From Octopus vulgaris (Eukaryota), in assembly GCA_951406725.2 (NCBI GenBank), contig OX597823.1:112964001-113028000 (forward strand): 64,000 nt of DNA, written 5' to 3'. Under the pieces are notes generated by a model. That model had not been told where the DNA came from. It worked only from the letters and a program-made list of their open reading frames with translations, and ran no database searches. Positions 9,161 through 56,499 of the stretch are shown here, in pieces (position 1 is the stretch's first letter; the number at the start of each line of letters is the position of its first letter). The position numbers and the translations under genes were made by a program.

Positions 9161-9492
9161 TAAATCTGCCCCTACAAGTCAGGCATGCCACTACGTCTGT
9201 GCCTACGGCAAAACCGGTCTCGCAACTATTTCTATACCTGCAGCTACGCCTTGCACCAATATATATATATATATATCCGCTCGTCATTTGGACACATAAG
9301 ACAGCTAAAAACAACCACGTGGATTCTGTTGAGACCAGTAAGAAACAATTATGAACGTTTGTATTACACTTAACTTTTTAAAATATTTTTGATAAGGTTC
9401 GTTTTTTCAAGAAGAACCGAAACATGTAAAATTTCTAAAAAAATTAAAATTCATTTTATATAGTGGCGTTTTCAAACTTCTTTTTTATAAAT

Positions 9493-13160: not shown

Positions 13161-13512
13161 TTTCTACACGAGATAGATGAATAAACAAGAAAACACCAAG
13201 TGTTGAAATCTGTGCATAAAGTACGAGTAAATACTGCAATGTATCTTCCCCGGCTTTCTGCAACTTATATTTTCCTCACTGCCTTGTAATTTTAACAACC
13301 GAACTGCATTCAAAATAACAATTATAAAACATAGAAGAAAACAGAGGGAAAATCACAAGAATTAACTGCTATATTATATTTATATTGATAGAACTCTAAA
13401 CTGAATAAAAAGAACGCTTATTTACAAAAAAATGGAATCTCACGAAATGTTTCTCTTAATTAGTATCGAACCCTAATGGCATTTTCTTTTTAAGGTATGA
13501 TTACATGCATAA

Positions 13513-13930
13513 GGCGGCGAGCTGACAGAATCATTTAGCACGCTGGGCGAAATGCGTAGCCGTATTACGTCTGCCGCTACGTTCTGAGTTCAAATTACAC
13601 CCAGGTCGACTTTACCTTTCATCCTTTCGGGGTCGATAAATTAAGTACCAGTTACGCACTGGTGTCGATGTAATCGACTTAATCCATTTGTCTGTCCTTG
13701 TTTGTCCTCTCTGTGTTTAGCCCCTTGTGGGTAGTAAAGAAATAGGCATTTCGTCTGCCGTTACGTTCTGATTTCAAATTCCGCCGAGATAGACTTTGCC
13801 TTTCATCCTTTCGGGGTCGATAAATTAAGTACCAGTTACGCACTGGGGTCGATGTAATCAACTTAATCCGTTTGTCTGTCCTTGTTTGTCCTCTCTGTGT
13901 TTAGCCCCTTGTGCGTAGTAAAGAAATAGG
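13513..13930 (+). mobile_element. SINE family A head-to-tail dimer
   Basis: A full monomer is followed by a second unit restarting at GCATTTCGTCTGCC (13746; period 184). One TSD, AGGTATGATTACATGCATAA, at 13493-13512 and 13928-13947. Confidence 0.9.
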
Positions 13931-14369
13931 TATGATTACATGCATAAATACAAATGACATAAAATGTAATTGATAATGTAAATGTTAACAAAGATAACCA
14001 TAAATGCGTTGAAGCGAGGAATATAAAATTCTTGTGATGAATCTAACTTCCGAAACATGCGCACTTATAATAAACAGAATATCCACAGGTTTCTTTAACA
14101 CATTGAAGGCGTGTGGATTTGTAGTTAATAATATTGGGCACACGTTCTTAAGGCTGTGGGAGTGATTCCTGCACTGTGTTAAACTTGAGTCCCTGCGCAT
14201 GAGCGAAATGCTTCAGTTTATGTTGTAGAAATTCGCTTAGTGGAAAAAGAGGAAGGAGCCTTGCATAATTAATCGTCTAAATACCTTAGAAAAATGTATA
14301 CACTCGGGCCTCACTAGCCCCTATGTTTGATGGCATTAGTATTAATTAGATACAGAAAATTTTGGCTGA

Positions 14370-14516: not shown

Positions 14517-14744
14517 ATATAAAAATTCTATAATTATGAGTATAATTATAATTTGGGTTCAGCAAAATTTGCTTCACCACATACCGAAATTTTAGAAATA
14601 GCAGTTAAAAACTACTATTTCACTACCATAAGAAAATCTCCTAGAGATTTTGTTATGGTTGTGAAATAGTAGTTTTTAACTGCTATAAGCAAATTTTGCT
14701 GAACCCTAATTATAATTATAATCATAATTATAGAATTTTTATAT
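14517..14744. repeat. long fold-back palindrome with a 23-nt bulge
   Basis: Outer arms 14517-14574 and 14687-14744, inner arms 14598-14640 and 14644-14686, 3-nt loop CTA. Lies near a (TA)n tract. Confidence 0.9.
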
Positions 14745-19064: not shown

Positions 19065-19570
19065 ATAGCAGTATCGCCCGGCGTTGCTCGGGTTTGTATA
19101 ACTATATAAGCATTTTTAGAGAGTTACTTCCCTTATAGATGCCAATTCGGGCTTTCTTAGCCATTTCTGTTTTGGTGTCTTCAAGCCATGAAGTCGTTGT
19201 TCTAAAAGAACGCTGGTCTCCTTGACAACGCATTACGACGTTGATTTCCTTACACTCCCTTCCCCACAGCTTCACGAGGGAGGGAAGAAATGGGAGAAGC
19301 AAACAGGTGCAGGTGTGACCATGGACGCCAACTCAGCCGCCATCGACACATGAAAATTTATGCATTAAAATGGAATAAAAAATGATGTTAAATTATTTTT
19401 AAAATTGTAGACTCATCGTAGACGCGCGCTAATAGCCAGACGGGCTCGATATTAATCACGACTATAAGATACCCGAATTTGGTTAAACTGCACCGCAAAA
19501 TGTGGGAGGAGTTAGGAATCTAAATCGTAGGAGACAGACACTCACACAACTACAGTTTTATATATATAGA
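19065..19570 (-). mobile_element. non-autonomous Helitron, near-identical to 26958-27474
   Basis: Reverse complement of 26958-27474; the same spurious ORF ...TTTSWLEDTKTEMAKKARIGIYKGSNSLKMLI appears in both. Confidence 0.85.
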
Positions 19571-19787
19571 TATAACTTCATATATATTCATACACGAATT
19601 AATAATCTGTCTACAAATCCCTTTTTCTCCCTCCCTCTTTCTTCTCTCTCTTTATCTCTCGCTCTCTCTAACATCCATCCATACATACATACATACATAT
19701 AAATAAACACATTCATGGCGGTATGTTGGAAGAAGTTTCAGTGTCGCATAAATTACTGTGCGCTAATTGTTCCGAATAATGCATATA

Positions 19788-20224
19788 CGTGGTCGACCAA
19801 AATGATGTGACACATTTGGAGGCATAATAAAAGCACAAAATAAGAAATAATAAAAAGAAAAATTTATTTTCTGAATGCATATATGGTGAAATGTGGAATG
19901 GTGAAATATGATTTCTTCTTGAGGGGATATTCAAAGTATTCAGTCATCGCCCTCGATCTATTGAAGAATTAAAATGTGCAATTTGTGTAGAAATAGCAAG
20001 CATTCCAGAAGAAATTATCCAAAGAGTTATCGATAACTTTGATGAACGTCTCCAATAGTGTGTTGACAATGATGGGAAGCATTTAGCTGATTTAATTTTT
20101 AAAACTTAATGAAATAAAATGGCAATATATGTACATTCAGAAAATAAATTTTTTCTTTTCATTATTTCTTATTTTGTGCTTTTATTAAGCCTCCAAATGT
20201 GTCAGATCATTTTGGTCCTCCCTG
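19788..20224 (+). mobile_element. Tc1/mariner deletion derivative (DD41D/rosa-like) with about 95-bp TIRs
   Basis: TIRs at 19788-19884 and 20126-20224, flanked by TA. The interior reads DFFLRGY/KVFSHRPRSIEELKCAICVEIASIPEEIIQRVIDNFDERLQ*CVDNDGKHLADLIFKT* (19910-20109). Confidence 0.85.
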
Positions 20225-20789
20225 TATAAGCCATGAATATAACTTATAGATTTCTAAATTATGCATTGGCTCTCATCTCAAGCCGCAGCAAGATCAAGCT
20301 GTTTGCAGATTGTACAATATGCTTAACTTGAAACAAGATATAACCTGGCGAGAAAAATGATCTGCTTTATGGTGGTTTAGTGTATGTTTTGTTCAAATTG
20401 AAACAACCACGCAAAACATGATGTATAGAAGGTTTCATATACACACAAATTATGTTTTTGAGATATTTACGATATGAGAAATAACTGTTTTCTGTTACTT
20501 GAAGTTAGTTCCATGTGAACGACTAAATATTCATTTTGTTCCATCTAATTAAGAAAATATAGAACTAGAAATGTGTAATTATGTGCAATTATATAATCAT
20601 AATTATTATTTCATAAACAGAGGAATTTAAAAGTCTCTTAATTATCCAACATATTCTCGGATTTTGGTAATCAGCAGCAAATATTGTGCATATGTGGAGA
20701 AAGCTATTTCATAGTAGTTAATTTCAGTATTATTGCGTCACAGAATACAAGGTTTGTTTTAGATTCATTTATTATCCATTCCTAATAAT

Positions 20790-20994: not shown

Positions 20995-21703
20995 ATCCAT
21001 TCCTAATAATCTCTGTCCAAGCTCTTCTCTTATCTGTTGCTAAGCTTTGTTGTGTATCCACCCATATAAAGGAGATATTGTGAGTGAGAATTATCAACAA
21101 TAACAACTAGTCGAATACAAGTGAGACAGTGGATTGACGAAGTCGTTAGAATGTTAAATTGAATGCCCCGTGGTGCTTGTTGTAGCCCCCTCTGATGGGC
21201 TCATATCCTGTCGCGATCAACTTTGCATGTATGCTTTCGGGATCGATAAACAGAAACAATCAAAGGAACAGTATGAATCTGGGACTAAATAATTTGTGGC
21301 ATTTGTTTTTGATCTTTAGAATATGAGTTCAAATCCTATCATTCAAGTGGTAGACTTGAAATGTGACCCGGTTTAACACCACCATTTGATATCTTGAATA
21401 ACTTCAATGGCTTGTACTCTGTTTCAAGGATTAGGATTAGGTTTCTCATTTGAGGATTCTGTACTCTCTCACTCCCACTAATCCAGGAGGCCTGGTAAGG
21501 AGTCATATACAATATCTTCTCTCCTCATTAAAAGTTTAAATGCGTTAACTTCCCATAATCTTAATCATTATTTTCTTTAAAATTCATTAATTTTATAACT
21601 GGCAATTGTCACCCATAACCAGGTTAGAGCGTTCTCTATTGGGCTGATGAAAACATTTTGAACTGTTTAGTTCTGTTTAGTACAAGATACAAAAAAATTA
21701 AGG

Positions 21704-21895
21704 GATTTGATAGAGAAAGAGCTGTTGTATAATTTCCACATTTACCAGGTCTGAGGCCACTAAACTTTTTTATAGTGATACTTCAGAGATAAATGCCAAG
21801 ATATAAAACGAGCAACAGTCGACGAATGAAGAACAGTTATGGAATGTGAACGTGTACGAATATCAGACGAAATGATTTTTTACCATTGTTTTTAC
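21704..21895 (+). repeat. diverged direct repeat of 23838-24019
   Basis: Shared blocks GATTTGAT, TGTTGTATAA, GTGATACTT.AGAGATAAATGC, GCAACAGTCGACGAA and CGAAATG.TTTTT. Confidence 0.75.
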
Positions 21896-22312
21896 GATTC
21901 CATTACTGGACCAGAACGGAAATTTATTAGAATGTGTAAAAGGCTTTTCACTGTAGTTTGTTATGGACACAAGACTGTCAAAACATCACTTACATTCCAG
22001 AGGCTGATGAAAGCATTTCGAACTTTTTAGTTCTCTTTAGCACGAGATACCAAAGAATGGCAACTCTGACTTGATTATGAAGCTCGACTTCCTTCATAAG
22101 AAATTAGTCAATATTGTTAATTAACAGAGTATATCGGCGAATAGGGTGGAACAAACACGTGAGAAGTTGTGTGAGGCAATAAGTGAAAGCAAACAACATT
22201 GAAACCAGTCCAAATATGCTTGAGAGATATATGAACCAGCAAAAGAGCGTTGAGAAAGTGTTCTCCATCAGACACTCATTTACCTTCAATAGATGCCTCT
22301 TCATATTTCAAG

Positions 22313-22602: not shown

Positions 22603-22792
22603 ACAATGCGAAGTAAATACGAGGTAAATCACAAGAAAACAAATATGTGAATTAATGTAGACTTAATTTGTATTCAATATTTAGGGGTTATGACCCCATT
22701 TTCAAACACCGAAATATTGAATACAAGGTAAGTCTACGTTAATTAACATATTTTGTTTTCTTGTGATTTACCTCGTATTTACTTCGCATTGT
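22603..22792. repeat. about 190-bp imperfect palindrome
   Basis: ACAATGCGAAGTAAATACGAGGTAAATCACAAGAAAACAAA... pairs with ...TTTGTTTTCTTGTGATTTACCTCGTATTTACTTCGCATTGT, with a short central spacer. Confidence 0.92.
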
Positions 22793-22878
22793 AAATACCT
22801 ATTTTGCAGGAAAAACTGTTGGCGGCCGGCATACATACATACATATGTATTTATATATATATATTTATATATAACATA

Positions 22879-23265
22879 ATCAGCCATCTGAATGTGGCTA
22901 GGGACAGGGCAGGGCGGTGGGGGTGTTACTGATGCATTTAGCCCCAGGCGATCATCAACGTCACCAGGAGGGCTGACACCATCTCGGTGTCCTCTAGCCT
23001 GCAAAGGGAGATCATTCCCCGAAGAAGCGGATGCTACATACGGACCAGGTTTCAAGGTATTTGCCTATTATCAACGCATGGTAAGGACCGCTCTCCGACG
23101 AATAACTCTCTGTCCGCTTCTTCGGGGAATGATCTCCCTTTGCAGGCTAGAGGACACCGAGATGGTGTCAGCCCTCCTGGTGACGTTGATGATCGCCTGG
23201 GGCTAAATGCATCAGTAACACCCCCACCGCCCTGCCCTGTCCCTAGCCACATTCAGATGGCTGAT
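22879..23265. mobile_element. GC-rich fold-back element with 153-bp inverted arms and an 81-nt spacer, inserted in (TA)n
   Basis: Arms at 22879-23031 and 23113-23265 read as exact reverse complements; the ORF track shows identical peptides on opposite strands. Confidence 0.9.
23037..23080 (-). ncRNA. degenerate type-I hammerhead ribozyme motif
   Basis: Minus strand: CATGCG-TTGATAA-TAGG CAAATA CCTT-GAAAC-CTG-GTC-CGTATG. Stem I has 6 bp; the core differs from CUGAUGA at two positions. Confidence 0.5.
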
Positions 23266-23318
23266 GCCCCTTATGTTATAGAGCAGTTACTGTTTATATC
23301 TCGTTTAGAGATTTATTA

Positions 23319-23356
<38 letters not shown>

Positions 23357-23510: not shown

Positions 23511-23837
23511 GAGGGTGTTCTAGAGCAAAATGTATATGCAATTTAAGAGATGACGACTTCATTGTCATTTCGTTTTAGATTTAACCCATTAAGAACAATG
23601 AAAAGAGAAAGACGAAGCTTTGAGAAGACGAATTTTAACCCAAAGAGCTACCGGAAGTTCCAAAATTCAGATGAAGTACGAATAAAATTAAAGAGGGTGT
23701 TTCAAACGGGTACATCTACGCAATTTACCATCATTTGAATGAGAGAATTATGAAGCAGACAGCACTATTCAGAATGTCTACACAAGATGTTCCTGAAGAC
23801 CGCGGATATCGATGAGCCCCAGAAGCGATAGACAAGT

Positions 23838-24019
23838 GATTTGATCGAAAAAGCTATGTTGTATAACTTCCTCGTTTACCAGACCGGGGACCACAAAGCC
23901 CTTTTATGGTGATACTTAAGAGATAAATGCTACGATACAAAACAAGCAACAGTCGACGAACGAAGGGCAGCTATGGAATAAGAATATCACACGAAATGTT
24001 TTTTAAACATTATTTTTAC
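23838..24019 (+). repeat. diverged direct repeat of 21704-21895
   Basis: See the 21704-21895 entry. Confidence 0.75.
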
Positions 24020-25913
24020 CTTTCCAGAACGGGCATTAATTTGAAACCAGGCGTTCATAAGAAGATAATTAAATTTCGTGTGTAGATTCGATTCGATTAT
24101 GAAAATTCAATCTATTGCAGTAAACACTGACTTTATAATGATTCAATGTATGTATACCTTATTTGGTGTCTCCCTGCACAAACACACACACACACACACT
24201 AATATTATCTGGCACTTATATATACATATATACAAGCACAAACACACACACACACACAAACATTATCTGGTACTTTCATTGGGAAGCTATTAGTAATGGT
24301 ATTTTACATTAATGACGAAAGATTGCAATAGTTGTTGGTTCAATAAAGGTTAACTATTCTTCTTGACCTTCTAGGTCTACCAAAATGCCGAAACTCAACA
24401 GTATGTGGTATAATCCTTAGCAGAAATTTTGGTAATGGAATCACAATATTATTTATTTAGAGTCTAATAGTATTCAATCGTAAATTGGATTTTGTTTTGG
24501 TTTGGTTAGGTTAATATTGTGTCATCCCATCGGATTTCTGTTGTCATTAACGTTAAAACAAATATTGGCTGATTCTGACACCGGTTCCCCTAAAGAATAT
24601 TGCGTTTGAATAAATGAGAATAGCTTGTTCGTACAGGGTAATAGTAAATGTGAGAGAATGCCAAATATGGCATAAGATATTTTGCACTGATTATCATAGA
24701 ATGCGTGCAACTATATTAACGGGGCTCAGACGTTCGCTTTGCAATTATATTATTTCGCTGGCGATGGCAGAGCATCGCTTAGTGAGCGAGTGTCGTGTCT
24801 TGAATGTTGCTAACCTTCGGTCAACCAAGGTTTACTGAGAAAAATTTGGTACGGGGACACTGTACTACCTCAATGCAGTGGAATGAAATTGAACTACAAG
24901 GTTAATGAAATTACATAGAAACAAATACAACAAATACAAAACGAATGTTGATTCCGTGAAATTTCTTTAAAAGAGAAGGTAAAATAGGAGATAAAAGAAA
25001 CGTTTAGTGGCAATTGTATCCGACTCCAGATGATAAGGTGATAATTTCAGTGATCAAGAATTTCCCGGAAATGACATGCCATTAAGAGAAAAGAGTAGTT
25101 GTTTTTTTTTTTGTCATGGAAATAAGAGGACGAAAAGAGACCCTCGATTTTGATAAATTATGTTTCATTTGCACGGTAGTTGTTTTACTATTGGTCAAAT
25201 TTAATTTACACAAATTAAACAAAAAATCTACTAAGCGAAAAATCATTAAGTGTCACTCACCTATACATATATGCCACCTATACATACATACATACATACA
25301 TACATACATACATACATACATACATGCACTCGCATGCAAACACATACGCACACATATACACAGGCACCACATATAATGATGTCTGTTCACACCTAACCGA
25401 GGAAAGGCATCATTGACCATTGCCTATGCAAAACGCTAGTAGTGCTCATACATGAGGTTATTGCACCAGCATTCGGCTTCCCTTGCATTCGCATCTGCGT
25501 CTTCTATGCTGGCCCCGCCGCCCTCTTACTCAACCGAATATCGGTCAGTCATCTCACACAGTCTAGAATTTTAGGTCCAATAATGCTTTCATAGAACCTC
25601 ACATACCCTCTCCATTCTAGTGACATGATACACAATGAAAGATACCCAGTGTCAATGTGGGTTGCAAGCTCAGTAATGTGGGTCACAATGATCGGAAGCG
25701 CAAACAAAAATCCCCAAAATGTCCAGTACCGTTCCTTGGATTTATATGAGAAACATGTTCTCCTAGAAACATGTTTAACAAGGACTAAGGGGTGCCTTAC
25801 TCACAGTGGTCTTCCAGCACGGCATAAGCCAACTCGGAATTTCTGAGGGCCCGTGCTAGATAATCATTGGACCTGTACTAAGTTCATCTGTTCTTTTGAC
25901 AGGTTTTGTATTT

Positions 25914-26134: not shown

Positions 26135-26957
26135 AGGTTTTGTATTTGGTCCTGCTAGGTCCCTAGCAACTCTCCTCACTAGGCAAGCCTATTAAGGGTA
26201 CCTTTTCAGTCACTGATGACTCAGCTATGCAATAAGTTGTACTGGATTCCATGTTACCCTTAGCACGCATGAGACACCTCACAAGCGATGTAACAAGCAG
26301 ATATAAAAACACACACACACACACATGTACGTGTATCTTTCTCTGTTTTAGAGAATTGCGGCTGAATTGATGCGTCAGACTAAAATATCCGAAGTGACTT
26401 GTTTTCGAAACCCTGTAAAAATATTCAAAAGTAATGGGCCATATGACTAACAAAAATGTCTGAAACCATTAAAAGAATCTTGTTAACGGCTTTTGTAACC
26501 TAATACTTTTGTTGGTTGTACGGCGTCTTGTGTACAACGTTGATGTGGGCGAAGATTTTTCCAGAATAAAGACGAAAAATGAAACGATCATAATCACAGT
26601 CCCTCAGTATAAATAATTAAACAAAATTTTCTGGCCAATAGGCCAGAAAATCTGTGATACGGCTTGTGTGTGTGATACGCATGAATCTTTGATTTAAGTG
26701 CGTCGTAAGCAAACAAGCAATAACAAGCAATAAACAAGGCAATGACTCTTGATGAATCATTTGAAATTATATTGCTTATGTTATTGTCAATGAGGCTGAA
26801 TCAACATTATTCTATTTACCATGATGTTTATAGGTTATAAGATCCTTAGTGCTTTGGCAATTTACAGAACAATGGCATTAATAATTTCAGGCAACGTACA
26901 GAGCTACAACATATTAAATTCGCTAAAATTTTCGGAGTTATGGCATCGCTATAGTTA

Positions 26958-27474
26958 TCTATATATATAAAACTGTAGTTGTGTGAGTGTCTGTCTCCTA
27001 CGATTTAGATTCCTAACTCCTCCCACATTTTGCGGTGCAGTTTAACCAAATTCGGGTATCTTATAGTCGTGATTAATATCGAGCCCGTATGGCTATTAGC
27101 GCGCGTCTACGATGAGTCTACGATTTTAAAAATAATTTAACATCATTTTTTATTCCATTTTAATGCATAATTTTTCGTGTGTCGATGGCGGCGGAGTTGG
27201 CGTCCACGCTCAAACACCTGCACCTGTGTTTGCTTCTCCCCCTTCTTCCCTCCCTCGTGAAGCTGTGGGGAAGGGAGTTTAAGGAAATCAACGTCGTAAT
27301 GCGTTGTCAAGGAGACCAGCGTTCTTTTAGAACAACGACTTCATGGCTTGAAGACACCAAAACAGAAATGGCTAAGAAAGCCCGAATTGGCATCTATAAA
27401 GGAAGTAACTCTCTAAAAATGCTTATATAGTTATTTCCCTTACAAACCCGAGCAACGCCGGGCGATACTGCTAG
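26958..27474 (+). mobile_element. non-autonomous Helitron
   Basis: 5' end A|TCTATATATATAAAA, 3' hairpin CCCGAGCAACGCCGGG (27447-27462), then CTAG|T. No TSD; inserted between A and T. Confidence 0.88.
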
Positions 27475-33642: not shown

Positions 33643-35025
33643 CATCCAGTCGTTAGTTATTTGAAGATATTTATTTGGCAGGTCCAAATGTGGTGGTTTT
33701 GTAAAAGATCTCAAACTGGATCAAACTCTGACCTCCTGGGGCTAAAAAAGGGTAAAAATGGATCCATGTCTGCCTTTGGGAGGTGCGTCTTCTTAAAAAT
33801 CAGCAACTTGCGTATTTTTCTGTTCATGTTCTATACTTCAATCATATTTCATTTCAACACATTGAAGCTCGTAATAATAACTGGAATTGCTAAGGAGTTT
33901 ATAGCTAACACATTGTTACGTGTATTTAGTTCAAATTTCTGAACTGCTTCAAGTCTCCTGTAATATTCCTCTCCCATTTCTCTCTTTCATGATCGTATGC
34001 TGAATGCCACAGCTTTCATTTAAATCTGGGTATTTGTAGGTTAGTTTCTATTCAAGTACTTTTATAACTCTGTTGACATCTAACACGACTGAATTTTGAA
34101 GTCTTCAATTTCTCTTTCTAGAAAGTGGCCATGGTACGCTTATCGAGACCAAACTCTATCTTGATATCATTACTGAATGCTTTCACTGTACCTAATAGGC
34201 ATTTAAGCTCATCATTGTCTTTGCTGCTGAGTTTTAAGGCATCCTTTTAAAACAGATGGCTTATTTTCTGTTTCCCAATTTTATGCCCATATTCTGTTCA
34301 ATTAAATTTGCCCGTAGTGGGTATTAGAGCTATGGCAAAGATTAGAAGTGAATATGGGTGGTAAATGCCATATTTGAAGTTAATGTTGTTTGAAGTTAGC
34401 ATTTCATTAGGATGATGCAATTGGAGATTCTTATTCCACAATAACATATCATGCTTCAGGAAATTTGAAATTACGGGAGAAATTTCGAAGATGTCTTGCG
34501 ATTTCATGATCCATGAATGTGGTATGTTTCTGAAAGCCATTTTTTAATCAATCCATGCGGAACTGAGATTTCTGTGCTTGTGACAGTTTTCAGGGATCAT
34601 GCAATTAATTACGAGTTCATCTTTGCATCTTTGTCGGCACATTTTTTCTTCATTGGGAAAGATATTCGTCTGTTCCTAAAATGCATGTTTTCCCCCCAAA
34701 CAATAGACGCGACCGGTAAGCTTTTGAACTTTGGTTTCATTATCCTTTAGGACTAGGTAAATAAGACCATTTTCTAATCAGTCAGGTATTTTCTTAGGAT
34801 CTCTCATAATTTCATTGAACATCTAAACTAACTTTTCCTGTGCGCACGATAGCAACAAAATTGGGATTTCCATTTATGAGCCTTCGTGAGTTTCATCTTT
34901 AGGTTTGTTTTGGGGATATTTTCACACGCTTGTTCTTGGCATGATTCTTCTGTGTGTCTAATGCAATTTGCATATTCATTGTACGCCTTCTCATCACTCC
35001 ATATCTTTTCCACAAATTCCCCTAC
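33643..35025 (-). mobile_element. decayed Dong/R4-clade reverse transcriptase region
   Basis: Minus-strand fragments in order: EFVEKIWSDEKAYNEYA..LTKAHKWKS; AFRNIPHSWIMKS..FLKHDMLLW..INFKYGIY; LLIFAIALIP; ISHLF*KDALKL (decayed YMDDLKL); FSNDIKIEFGLDK; HLPKADMD; KYLQITNDWML. Confidence 0.85.
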
Positions 35026-36412
<1,387 letters not shown>

Positions 36413-36989: not shown

Positions 36990-37221
36990 AGGCGGCGAGC
37001 TGGCAGAAACGTTGGCACGCCGGCCGAAATGCGTAGCCGTATTTCGTCTGCCGTTACGTTCTGAGTTCAAATTCCGCCGAGATCGACTTTGCCTTTCATC
37101 CTTTCGGGGTCGATAAATTAAGTACCAGTTACGCACCGGGGTCGATAGAATCGACTTAATCCGTTTGTCTGTCCTTGTTTGTCCCCTCTGTGTTTAGCCC
37201 CTTGTGGTTAGTAAAGAAATA
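36990..37221 (+). mobile_element. SINE family A (young copy)
   Basis: TSD CATATATAGAAAAAAA at 36973-36988 and 37222-37237. Confidence 0.92.
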
Positions 37222-37894
37222 CATATATAGAAAAAAAATTATATCGGTGCTCTAATCCTTTTGTTAACTCTTGTCATTCTATGAATACAAACTATAGTAG
37301 TAGAAACTTGCAGATTTAGGTTTGTATGAAAAAACTCAAGGCATATTAACATTATATCAACTCCATTTTCATTTTCATTAATTTCAATTTAGACTCAAGA
37401 AAATTTTAATTCACAGCGACTAAATTGATATTCATTGTTGTTTTAATGTATTTTACTTTCGACTCATTAGAACCGAGATCTTTTAATGAGTGAAGTTATT
37501 GGAGATTTTCACTGTTTTTCATTTTTCTTTTTTTTTTTTTTGTCATTTACATTCAATCTCAATTATATTGTCTAATTAATCGTAGTTTCAGATTGAGAAT
37601 TATTTAAATTCAGAATCTTTTGGAACCTTTTAGCTTAAGTACAGTTGATATTACTTTCTTATTCAGTCACATTGTCGTTTGAAATAACTAACAAACTATT
37701 CATTGCGTTTTTTCTTCTCTATATATTATTATAATTCTAACCATGTCTCTGTTCGGGTGTCAAAGAGAGATATAACGCACACTATTTGTACAAGTATGGT
37801 AAGGTGAATCTGAAGTATAAGACGTCGGTAATATTGTGAAGTTGAAGATTAGAGGGTAACGTTACTTATCTATAGTTGCATCACTACAGAATGC

Positions 37895-44933: not shown

Positions 44934-45010
<77 letters not shown>

Positions 45011-45012
<2 letters not shown>

Positions 45013-45683
45013 AGAGAAAAACCGCTATTATGCAATTCAAACAATGATATACATAAATCAAATCATAAATAAAAGCATATTCTATAGGTTATTAATGTTT
45101 TTTTTTAATTAAAGCTAAATTATATCTTTACACCTAAATACATTTTCTATTTACTCTATTTTTTTTAACTTTAAATATTTAACATGATAAATGTTTTGTA
45201 GGCAACTGGTCCTAATGTTTTAAGTTTAAAATTTAGGCAATGAGTTTCTTCTATAAGAAAAATCCTGATTTTATTTCTTTAAGAAATATTGTTTAATTCT
45301 ATTTGCATACTTATTTAACTATTATTGTTGTTTTTGTTAAGCTGAAGAGTGACAATAATTTTAAATTAAAGTTTTTCGATACAATTTAAATTTAATTGTA
45401 ATTCAAATTTAAATTATAGCCATGAAACGTTCGTAGCTTTTTTATTTATTACATATTGTTTATTCATTTTTGTACTTTTTATAATCTAATTATTTGTTTT
45501 AAAATATATTTTTAAAATATATTTTATTTTTTATTTATTATTTAGTTTATGTCCTTCATTGTTTGAATTGCATAATAGCGGTTTTTCTCTAATTTATATA
45601 TTATATATTTATATTGTGAAAGTTAATTTAATATTAAATTGAAATTTTCCTTGCAAGTTTGGAGTTATGCTCCCTAAAATTGT
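45011..45683 (+). mobile_element. hammerhead-containing fold-back element X1 (PLE-like, non-coding)
   Basis: Inverted arms at about 45011-45074 and 45528-45591 enclose a hammerhead motif. The end ...AAGTTTGGAGTTATGCTCCCTAAAATTG runs into (AAT)n. Confidence 0.65.
45338..45439 (+). ncRNA. type-I hammerhead ribozyme motif (stem I damaged)
   Basis: CTGAAGA (45342-45348), long AT-rich stem II (GTGACAATAAT...ATTATAGCCAT), GAAAC (45424-45428), GTTC, GTA. Shares GCCATGAAACG(T/A)TCGTAG with the 46.0-kb motif. Confidence 0.6.
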
Positions 45684-45780: not shown

Positions 45781-46195
45781 ATAATAAATATTAGGGAATA
45801 AATCCAAACTTACAGAGAAAAATCAGATTTAGGATTGAATCCAATTTTATAGTAAAATATTATATTATATTAAATTAGAGACAAAACCACTATTAGGCAA
45901 ATCAAACAATGAAAAACTTAAGCCAATACATAAGATTATTTAATTTATATTATTTAAGTATATAGCAAAATTATTAACAAAATATAATTAATATCACACT
46001 ACGATCGTTTCATGGCTGCTAACTTCTTCAAATTTTCAAGTCACAGTCATTCATCAGGTGGTTTAAATATTTATTTTTTTAATAATTTTGTTATATATTT
46101 AAATAATATAAATTAAATAATCTTATGTATTGGCTTAAGTTTTTCATTGTTTGATTTGCCTAATAGTGGTTTTGTCTCTAATTTAATATAATATA
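45781..46195 (-). mobile_element. hammerhead-containing fold-back element X2 (PLE-like, non-coding)
   Basis: Inverted arms of about 123 bp at 45861-45983 and 46073-46195 enclose a hammerhead. Arms and terminal segment are homologous to X1. Flanked by microsatellites. Confidence 0.75.
45997..46060 (-). ncRNA. minimal type-I hammerhead ribozyme
   Basis: Minus strand: CAC-CTGATGA-ATGACTGTGAC...GTTAGCAGCCAT-GAAAC-GATC-GTA-GTG. The core is intact, and the palindromic ACGATCGT stem III is typical of PLE hammerheads. Confidence 0.8.
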
Positions 46196-49100: not shown

Positions 49101-49356
49101 TGTTACTATTTCATGCTGGCAGAACCATCAAGTTGAAAGCCCCTTGCTGGTTTGTGGGATTTTCGTGTTCTAATATATCGGAACGACTTTGATAGCAATG
49201 AAATTAATATAGGGGTAAATTTAATCTACCATTCTTCCTTTCCAAACTGTTGAGTTGTTAGAAGTGGAGAAATCTATTTTAATAGAATATAGAGAAAAGA
49301 TGACTGAAATAGCGGAACACTGGATTAGATATCTAGCAATATTTTGCCTCATCTAA

Positions 49357-49998
49357 GACGGCGAGCTGGCAGAAACTTTAGCACGCCGGGTGAAATGCTT
49401 AGCGGTATTGCGTCTGCTGCTACGTTCTGAGTTCAAATTCCGTCGAGGTCGACTTTACCTTTCATTCTTTCCGGGTCGATAAATTAAGTACCAGTTACGC
49501 ACTAAGCTCGATGTAATCGACTTAATCTCTTTGTCTGTCCTTGTTTGCCCACTCTGTGTTTAGCTCCTTATGTGCAATAAAGAAAGAAGAAACGTTAGCA
49601 CACCGGGCAAAATGCTTAGCGGCATTTCGTCTGCCGTTACGTTCTGAGTTCAAATTCCGCCGAGGTCGACTTTGCCTTTCATCCTTTCGGGGTCGATAAA
49701 TTAAGTACCAGTCACGCACTAGGGTCGATGTAATCGACTTAATCCCTTTGTCTGTCCTTGTTTGTCCCCTCTGTGTTTAGCCCCTTGTGGGCAATAAAGA
49801 ATTAAGAAACGTTAGCACGCTGGGCGAATTGCTTAACATTATTCCGTCTGTTTTTACGTTCTAAGTTCAAATTCGGCCGAGGTCGACTTTGCCTTTTATC
49901 CTTTCAGGCCGATAATTACGAGTTGCGTACTGGAATCTATTTAATCGACTGGCGTACTCCCCCTAATTTTCGGGCCTTGTGCCTAGAGTAGAAAAGAA
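49357..49998 (+). mobile_element. SINE family A head-to-tail trimer (last unit has a different, type-3 tail)
   Basis: AGAAAC(G/T)TTAGCAC at 49371, 49588 and 49805 (period 217). One TSD, AATA(T/A)TTT(G/A)CCTCATCTA, at 49338-49355 and 49997-50014. Confidence 0.88.
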
Positions 49999-55330: not shown

Positions 55331-55807
55331 TCACTCAGGAAAGAACATTGATAGCATTTTGTCAATTTGACCCCATTTTCGGTTGGCAGGGAGAACCTTT
55401 TTAACAGCGCTATCGCTCTTGAACTCACAGAACTGGGAATTCTCCCGTTCTGCTGCCAGTTGCGCTAGATATCTGCCAACTCTCCAAAGAATCTGCCCTA
55501 TAAAAGTAAAGTACGTAAACGTATTACTAATATTATTTCAAATTTGCTGATAAGGAGTATTGAAAAAGGCAACATACCGATGGAAAACAAGAGAAGAAAC
55601 AACATAATTCCGAAGCGGTCGATGTTCCTGTCTTGCGATTATCCCAACATTTTTTTAATGTTTTATTCGGCGTTCTCCTTTCTGTCTTCCTTTTTTGTAA
55701 GAGTTAAATGTTATCTGAGGAAGACTTGACTGCCTTTGTATTCTTAGATTTAGATTTTCTCTGCTTTTCATTGCTTAATTTCTTAGACAATACATTGCAT
55801 ATATAAC

Positions 55808-56228
55808 GCGGCGAGCTGGCTGAATCGTTAGCGCGCTGGGTGAAGTGCTACGCGGTATTCCGCCCGTCGTTACGTTCTTCGTTCAAATTCCGCCGAGGTC
55901 GACTTTGCCTTTCATCCTTTCGGGGTCGAGTAAAAAAAGTACCAGTTACTCACTGGGATCGATATAATCGACTTAATTCGTTTGCCTGTCCTTGTTTGTC
56001 CTCTCTGTGTTTAGCCCTTTGTGGGTAGTAAAGAAATAGGTATTTCGTCTGCCGCTACGTTCTGAGTTCAAATTCCGCCGAGGTCGACTTTGCTTTTCAT
56101 TCTCTCGGGGTCGATTATATAAGTACCAGTTACGCACTGGGATCGATGTAATCGACTTAATCCCTTTGTCTGTTCTTGTTTGCCCCCGCCCCCATGCTTA
56201 GCCCCCTTATTTATCAATAAAGAAATAA
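55808..56228 (+). mobile_element. SINE family A head-to-tail dimer
   Basis: The second unit restarts at GTATTTCGTCTGCC (56040; period 185), the same junction as the 13513 dimer. Imperfect TSD AATA..TTGCATATATA at 55789-55805 and 56228-56244. Confidence 0.88.
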
Positions 56229-56499
56229 ATATTTTGCATATATATAAATTTCCAACGCTTACATCGTTTCAAGGCAGACACACTCCAAACCACCGACGCA
56301 AAGGAACATATTGTTCAGTGTCTAAGTGAAGGAAAGGTAGCAGTCATGATATTTTTCAGCTTTCCATCACTGGTAGGAAGAAGAAGAGCAACCGAGGTAC
56401 ATGTCAAGGATACCATGAACTAGTAGGGAAAGGGAAGTAACTATGACACGCTTGAGGGATTCTAGGATTGAAAGGCCGAAGGGAAGTAGCTATGATTTG

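Follow-up and report, generated by a model that had tools for sequence, protein, structure and literature searches.

The locus at 22860-23330 of the 64,000-nt stretch of Octopus vulgaris DNA analysed here (the window) raises the question of what kind of element carries a hammerhead ribozyme motif in the loop of a long, GC-rich inverted repeat, and of how such an arrangement could have arisen. A preliminary description, made from the sequence of the window, had proposed a young, non-coding element of the design seen in Penelope-like retroelements (PLEs).

An inverted repeat with unequal ends

The two arms (22879-23031 and 23113-23265) are 153 nt each, 100% complementary and separated by 81 nt; their GC content is 57.5%, against 35.7% for the window, and TA-rich tracts border the repeat on both sides. 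GC-rich arms of 153 bp, an 81-nt spacer and (TA)n flanks had all been described, and we measured them as stated. The further claim that the arms are free of mismatches holds for these 153 nt but not for the full repeat, since the complementarity continues for another 9 nt (22870-22878 with 23272-23280) across a 6-nt indel; the 6-nt stretch responsible, 23266-23271, is exclusive to the right arm. The outer ends are also unequal, in that a 36-nt tail leads from the right arm into a (TA)n run and the left end has no tail (Table 1). The copy as a whole comprises 447 nt, has no reading frame for a protein, and has no second copy within the window.

The element had been described as lacking a target-site duplication (TSD), which we could not establish, since an identical 14-mer adjoins both of its ends (22860-22873 and 23317-23330). 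This pair possibly represents a TSD of 10-14 nt; it is a candidate only, because the sequence is of low complexity, and the same 14-mer stands at the edge of five of the 164 (TA)5+ tracts in the window, the element's own included. With no differences in 153 nt, the divergence between the arms is at most 1.9% (95% bound). Given this bound and the octopus calibration quoted in PMC13282606, in which a distance of 0.09 corresponds to 25 My (published work is cited throughout from excerpts of the sources), the insertion would be less than ~3 My old, provided that no conversion has taken place between the arms. The insertion looks young, as had been supposed.

Table 1 Features of the inverted repeat and its borders, in window coordinates
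Feature	Position	Strand	Remark
Candidate TSD, left copy	22860..22873	+	Last 4 nt overlap the element end; low complexity
Left arm; part of the main copy that follows the hammerhead; tail-less short 3′ end	22870..23031	-	Without the 6 nt of 23266-23271
Type I minimal hammerhead motif	23037..23080	-	Core without variants at ≥4% in four of four runs
5′ end of the main copy; predicted stem I extension, ~20-bp rod	23086..23112	-	Score reached by 44/5000 shuffles
Right arm; second copy, inverted and 5′-truncated, joined to the main copy head to head	23113..23280	+	
One-sided tail, 36 nt	23281..23316	+	Absent on the left; family contigs align through 23317-23318
Candidate TSD, right copy, entering the (TA)n tract	23317..23330	+	Same 14-mer as on the left

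A type I minimal hammerhead motif in the loop

On the minus strand, the loop has the hammerhead topology, the 6-bp stem I and the UUGAUAA core that the preliminary description had read from it. Stem I pairs 23080-23075 with 23042-23037 and includes one G-U pair among its 6 bp. The core (U3-A9) lies at 23074-23068 and is followed by a weak stem II (23067-23054) of 3-4 bp, with a U-U at its base and a computed energy of −1.1 kcal/mol; by G12-A14 at 23053-23051, where GAAA is read on the minus strand; by a self-complementary helix III segment, ACCUGGU, at 23050-23044; and by C17 at 23043, the predicted cut falling between 23043 and 23042. The features of a type I minimal hammerhead are present, namely the 3-8 pair (here U3-A8), G12-A14, A15.1-U16.1 and H17. 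The G10.1-C11.1 pair that closes helix II, termed highly conserved in PMC4209133, is absent and replaced by U-U; a U-U base of helix II is also found in the hammerhead of the axolotl retrozyme HHR_Amex2 (PMC7229834).

We compared the motif with shuffled sequence using two descriptors, both of which were composed after the motif had already been seen. A general minimal-hammerhead descriptor, allowing either C3-G8 or U3-A8, matched none of 20,000 dinucleotide-shuffled loops and matched the window once, at this site; a descriptor demanding a self-complementary helix III had three matches in the window, compared with 0.01 on average over 100 shuffled windows. An Rfam search returned no hammerhead match at E≤10. 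By these sequence comparisons the motif is beyond chance, contrary to the coincidental match that had been named as the alternative. The ribozyme is predicted to be a poor cutter as a monomer, and would need a partner molecule or the element's own protein.

The core differs from CUGAUGA by C3U and G8A, with the 3-8 pair retained. In the light of the literature this change is no surprise: C3U/G8A covariation was reported in 2014 for the PLE hammerheads of Schistosoma Cercyon elements, with ~1,300 hits (PMC4209133), and U3-A8 has been found in nature and is reported to be active in vitro (PMC3088659). We conclude that the UUGAUAA core is ordinary, the compensatory U3-A8 change being already in print.

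An abundant family with two 3′ ends

The stretch, or part of it, is present in 20 of the 24 public runs listed, which span 11 studies and four organism labels (A-D); none of the listed runs that hold the family has RNA on record. The run that matches best is possibly the one from which the window itself derives. Contigs from runs X1, X3, X11 and X16 (labels A, B, B and D, respectively) were aligned at 80% likeness to the right half of the element, 23032-23318, giving 920 contigs from X1, 1068 from X3, 80 from X11 and 304 from X16. The element belongs to a very abundant, high-copy repeat family. Summed contig depth, which is not equal to copy number, is 13 to 24 times as high over the distal arm as over the ribozyme, and at 23102-23111 it amounts to 3-7% of the ribozyme depth in all four runs, indicating that most family copies lack this inversion junction.

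Some of the contigs leave the reference at 23280 and others reach 23317-23318, so that two 3′ ends, with a spacing of 36 nt, occur in the family: among the loose ends listed, 12 X1 and 14 X3 contigs enter (TA)n beyond 23280, as the left arm does, and other family contigs align through to 23317-23318. At the opposite side, a form in X16 (at least six contigs, with a loose end before 23113) continues from the 3′ half of the hammerhead directly into the arm; the arm is therefore the sequence that lies downstream of the ribozyme. At 23176, 23229 and 23266 the window copy has a state other than that of the depth majority, and because the minority states at 23176 and 23229 are common to both arms, we conclude that both arms stem from one minor lineage. 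None of the pieces listed (32 of 2388) bridges 23112/23113, and the inversion junction is accordingly known from the assembly. The clustering of 5′ ends at the edge of the ribozyme, in the same four runs, is indistinguishable from alignment clipping.

Scanning metagenomes for the stem I-core motif yielded 119 loci in 33 of the 64 collection parts, none of them with the arm or the full motif. The core forms among these loci numbered 42, 42, 24 and 11, as chance predicts, and we rejected the loci as relatives. The arm motif had no match in prokaryote and viral contigs.

An invariant core and a changing helix III

No variant reaches 4% at 23032-23081 in any of the four runs, and the only loop variant that does, T>C at 23082, lies outside stem I. 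Since the core is free of such variants in four of four runs, UUGAUAA is family-wide; read from these alignments, the family state is U3-A8 for copies within 80% likeness, and the consensus core is TTGATAA, not CTGATGA, in every run. This agrees with the earlier suggestion that the variant core is a property of the family rather than decay.

The helix III segment, by contrast with the core, changes. It reads ACCUGGGU in X1 (at least two contigs) and X16 (at least six), and ACUAUAGU in X3 (at least six) and X11 (at least two), these forms being taken from a few short contigs among the loose ends listed. The computed energies of the self-duplexes are −5.5 kcal/mol for ACCUGGU, −9.8 kcal/mol for ACCUGGGU and −7.2 kcal/mol for ACUAUAGU. 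If helix III forms between two molecules, covariation of a self-complementary segment is what one would expect. In stem I we saw no paired change in the four runs; one variant of its 3′ strand (X16, three contigs) has a partner that was not read. Stem II is closed by U-A in the X16 form, compared with U-U in the window copy. Covariation, which had been proposed as a check on stem I, was thus not seen there, but helix III changes and yet self-pairs in all three forms. The combination of an invariant U3-A8 core with a helix III that is always self-complementary suggests that the ribozyme fold is under selection.

A predicted built-in hairpin at the ribozyme

The 5′ end of the main copy, that is its first ~25-27 nt (23112-23086), is imperfectly complementary to the beginning of the arm, with a local alignment score that 44 of 5000 shuffles reached. 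Pairing between the two is predicted to extend stem I by ~20 bp on the ribozyme strand. The sense strand has a fold energy of −35.1 kcal/mol when constrained to the hammerhead and of −38.0 kcal/mol in the free minimum free energy (MFE) fold, compared with −25.5 kcal/mol on the opposite strand. The unconstrained sense-strand fold, 2.9 kcal/mol lower than the constrained one, keeps the rod and does not form the hammerhead junction.

Three X1 contigs have a loose end behind 23102 that provides an alternative upstream sequence. Together with 23088-23102, this loose end matches the arm start in 25 of 33 columns, and four of six mismatches are G-U pairs on the ribozyme strand (both counts by eye). 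As far as can be judged by eye, copies with different upstream sequence would therefore retain the complementarity to the arm start. The start of the inverted arm coincides with the foot of the rod and lies 11 nt downstream of the predicted ribozyme cut. An inverted arm starting at the cut site itself was considered, and rejected on this ground.

Proposed origin of the inverted copy

We consider it likely that the element is a pLTR (terminal-repeat) insertion of an endonuclease-positive PLE, placed in (TA)n by target-primed reverse transcription. The PLE-like design seen in the preliminary description is borne out by the head-to-head inverted end, the one-sided 36-nt tail, the (TA)n target and the hammerhead. 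PLE insertions are described as having a head-to-head inverted pLTR, an optional one-sided 31-nt tail, TSDs of 8-10 bp and junction palindromes (PMC3846280), and an inverted, 5′-truncated copy with a 30-40-nt tail is given as typical of them, together with a bias towards (TA)n (PMC8557442). In vitro, the purified protein of an anole PLE cleaves AT-rich DNA on both strands and extends both, using two start sites whose spacing equals the tail; the hammerhead of this PLE cleaved only in the presence of the protein, and is dispensable for insertion in vitro (PMC11167929).

If the octopus element was inserted in this way, the RNA template would be the minus strand. The element's protein would nick both target strands and prime two cDNAs at two start sites, which would define the tail. 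The right cDNA would start at the far site, so as to include the tail, and would stop 11 nt short of the cut, at the foot of the hairpin; the left cDNA would start at the near site, pass through the ribozyme and stop ~30 nt upstream. Because of the built-in hairpin, the 3′ ends of the two cDNAs would be partly complementary, and they could join through this complementarity. The mirror arm would then have been made at insertion from one template lineage, which would account for the perfect arms. Fold-back of the left cDNA fits worse, since the right arm has 42 extra nt and contains the hairpin foot a second time. A single template does not explain why the arm ends differ by 6 nt.

The nature of the template

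The template itself could have been the end of a protein-coding PLE, or else a non-coding derivative mobilised in trans; we lean modestly towards the former. No match to an RT or GIY-YIG Pfam family was found in the 118 frames of the window, and the copy, at 447 nt and with no single ORF combining RT and GIY-YIG, is not an autonomous EN+ PLE. An open frame of 68 codons runs through the arm and the tail, for which no protein relative was found; its sole match, P0001, is a proline-rich tandem repeat with 28% identity, and was rejected as a relative. We likewise rejected as coding an ATG at 23257 that follows CAG, as PLE ORF starts do, since it has no protein support and the variants are mostly non-synonymous.

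These observations bear on the non-coding template in the form favoured by the preliminary description, to which we give a clearly smaller chance: a dedicated short RNA, made up of the hammerhead and a 3′ module of ~240-275 nt, that has no coding parent of the same sequence and is moved by a PLE in trans. Such a template would fit with the open frame lacking a protein relative and with the nine variant rows in 23263-23285, most of which alter the amino acid of the open frame when read by eye. It would also fit with three X1 contigs in which the sequence turns AT-rich ~16 nt further upstream of the ribozyme, and with the existence of non-autonomous PLE derivatives (PMC8557442; bioRxiv 2026.07.22.740005). 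However, PLE insertions are usually heavily 5′-truncated (PMC8557442), such that stubs outnumber full copies, and a 5′-truncated stub would fit equally well; moreover, the contigs are too short to reveal the upstream sequence, and a pLTR does not have to be coding.

A more far-reaching reading, which we consider rather unlikely, combines a very abundant non-coding PLE satellite with a rod of 20-30 bp, a dimer-dependent U3-A8 hammerhead at the tip of the rod, and a rod foot that fixes the join of the mirror arm. Were it true, the family would let two things be tested on abundant natural copies: the two-primer model of head-to-head Penelope insertions, and selection on ribozyme dimerisation by way of compensatory helix III palindromes.

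Explanations other than a pLTR insertion

Three explanations compete with a pLTR insertion as such. We judge it improbable that the element is a monomer of a non-LTR retrozyme, that is, of a tandem 170-400-nt hammerhead repeat with circular RNA, caught in an inverted insertion. Retrozymes share with the element a type I hammerhead, the lack of coding sequence and a similar size, and the U-U base of helix II recurs in the axolotl retrozyme (PMC7229834); the family is also found in contigs of run X11, which was guessed to be RNA and may be DNA. Nonetheless, there is no tandem copy in the window, where the element is single, and the defined 3′ ends leading into (TA)n and the one-sided tail are PLE features. 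The arm GC content of 57.5% contrasts with the <45% quoted for tandem units in PMC7229834. No 'go back' joint is listed either, in a joint table insensitive enough to miss even the common sense junction.

There is very little to recommend a DNA transposon of the MITE or foldback kind, bounded by long terminal inverted repeats, in which the hammerhead would be a chance match or a passenger: long perfect inverted arms beside TA, and a proximal-arm depth that is about twice that of the loop in runs X1 and X16, are set against asymmetric ends with a 36-nt tail at one side, a ~7-fold range of depth along the arm with the junction stretch at 3-7% of ribozyme depth, and a motif that is beyond chance and whose helix III covaries. 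We give equally little credence to the perfect second arm being an assembly artefact, a fold-back read on an ordinary truncated copy, since the absence of mismatches in 153 nt and of a listed contig crossing the junction is offset by arm ends that differ in a 6-nt indel and a tail, by unique flanks that differ between the sides, and by the presence in the window of an unrelated palindrome, 98% complementary, that shares this design.

Relation to known systems

Neither the core variant nor the inverted architecture is new to the literature, and the pLTR insertion proposed here finds its closest counterparts among described PLEs. It resembles Pen2/Pen2a of Adineta vaga (PMC3846280; scheme in PMC8557442) in the head-to-head, inverted, 5′-truncated copy with a one-sided tail of 30-40 nt, in the junction palindrome, in the AT-rich or (TA)n target and, if the candidate duplication is genuine, in the optional TSD of ~10 bp. 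In contrast to Pen2/Pen2a as described in these sources, the octopus copy is an end module only, with no reading frame; its junction palindrome is imperfect and forms part of the extended stem I.

With the Cercyon hammerheads of Schistosoma, as reported in the excerpted text of PMC4209133, the motif shares the U3-A8 pair, a palindromic 15-16 segment and the lack of a stable helix III in the monomer. It differs from them in that stem II has 3-4 bp and no G10.1-C11.1, in that the 6-bp stem I is predicted to extend, and in that U3-A8 is the sole form seen in the octopus family. Hydra-1_Obim of Octopus bimaculoides, from the supplement of PMC8557442, has the same (TA)n preference, a 3′ hammerhead and a helix III palindrome around one base, but has a C3-G8 core. 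In the text of that supplement, where matches may be broken across lines, none of three motifs from the window element turned up. Metazoan non-LTR retrozymes (PMC7229834; bioRxiv 2026.07.22.740005) are likewise non-coding, have a type I hammerhead and are proposed to depend on PLEs, but they are described as tandem arrays that yield circular RNA, whereas the octopus copy is single and inverted.

PLEs make up 6.83% of the O. vulgaris genome, in 190 families, according to the supplement of PMC13282606. In the cephalopod and octopus hammerhead literature that we searched, as represented by the excerpts available, PMC8557442 was the only relevant source; the family may well be recorded in Repbase or Dfam. 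Our analysis adds to the octopus genome a high-copy hammerhead family that has apparently been mobile recently, and is in that respect of modest importance. The self-complementarity of helix III, together with the invariant core, bears on the open question of what role the hammerhead plays in PLEs. Most worth keeping, in our view, are the covariation of helix III and the fact that the junction falls at the base of the built-in hairpin.

Other elements in the window

The window holds a second, unrelated element of the same design at 45861-46195, with 124-nt arms that are 98% complementary and a loop of 87 nt, in which lies a C3-G8 hammerhead (minus strand, at 46057) with a palindromic helix III. 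Fragments related to this element occur at 44990-45068 and 45504-45612. A second U3-A8 minimal hammerhead, of unrelated sequence, lies at 9381-9437 on the plus strand (site 9389); it has G10.1-C11.1, a palindromic helix III and a 4-bp stem I, and stands ~75 nt before a long (TA)n tract, without inverted arms. The hammerheads at 46057 and 9389 show that the design and the core variant each occur more than once in the window and are not rare there.

Immediately to the left of the element, 22603-22792 is an AT-rich, MITE-like palindrome with outer arms of 41 nt that are 100% complementary and inner arms that are 85% complementary. The element is further flanked by diverged direct repeats, at 21642-22058 and 23834-24026, which match over 57 nt at 86% and over ~200 nt at 77%. 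Inverted copies of a young repeat with TA-rich ends, 95.8% identical over ~510 nt, are found at 19066-19572 and 26956-27473. An element of ~450 nt at 19781-20231 has inverted ends of 105 nt that are 90% complementary; it resembles a deleted element of the Tc1/mariner type. At 14517-14744 there is an imperfect AT-rich palindrome of ~230 nt.

Two repeats of other kinds were also seen. The fragment at 34945-35502 (plus strand) is a decayed non-LTR retrotransposon, 57-66% identical to proteins with RVT_1 and zf-RVT. An interspersed repeat of 235 bp is present at 36990-37226 and in ~15 other places, its copies being 75-95% identical; it resembles an octopus SINE, and is sometimes arranged in tandem (13500-13955, 49337-49950 and 55788-56249).
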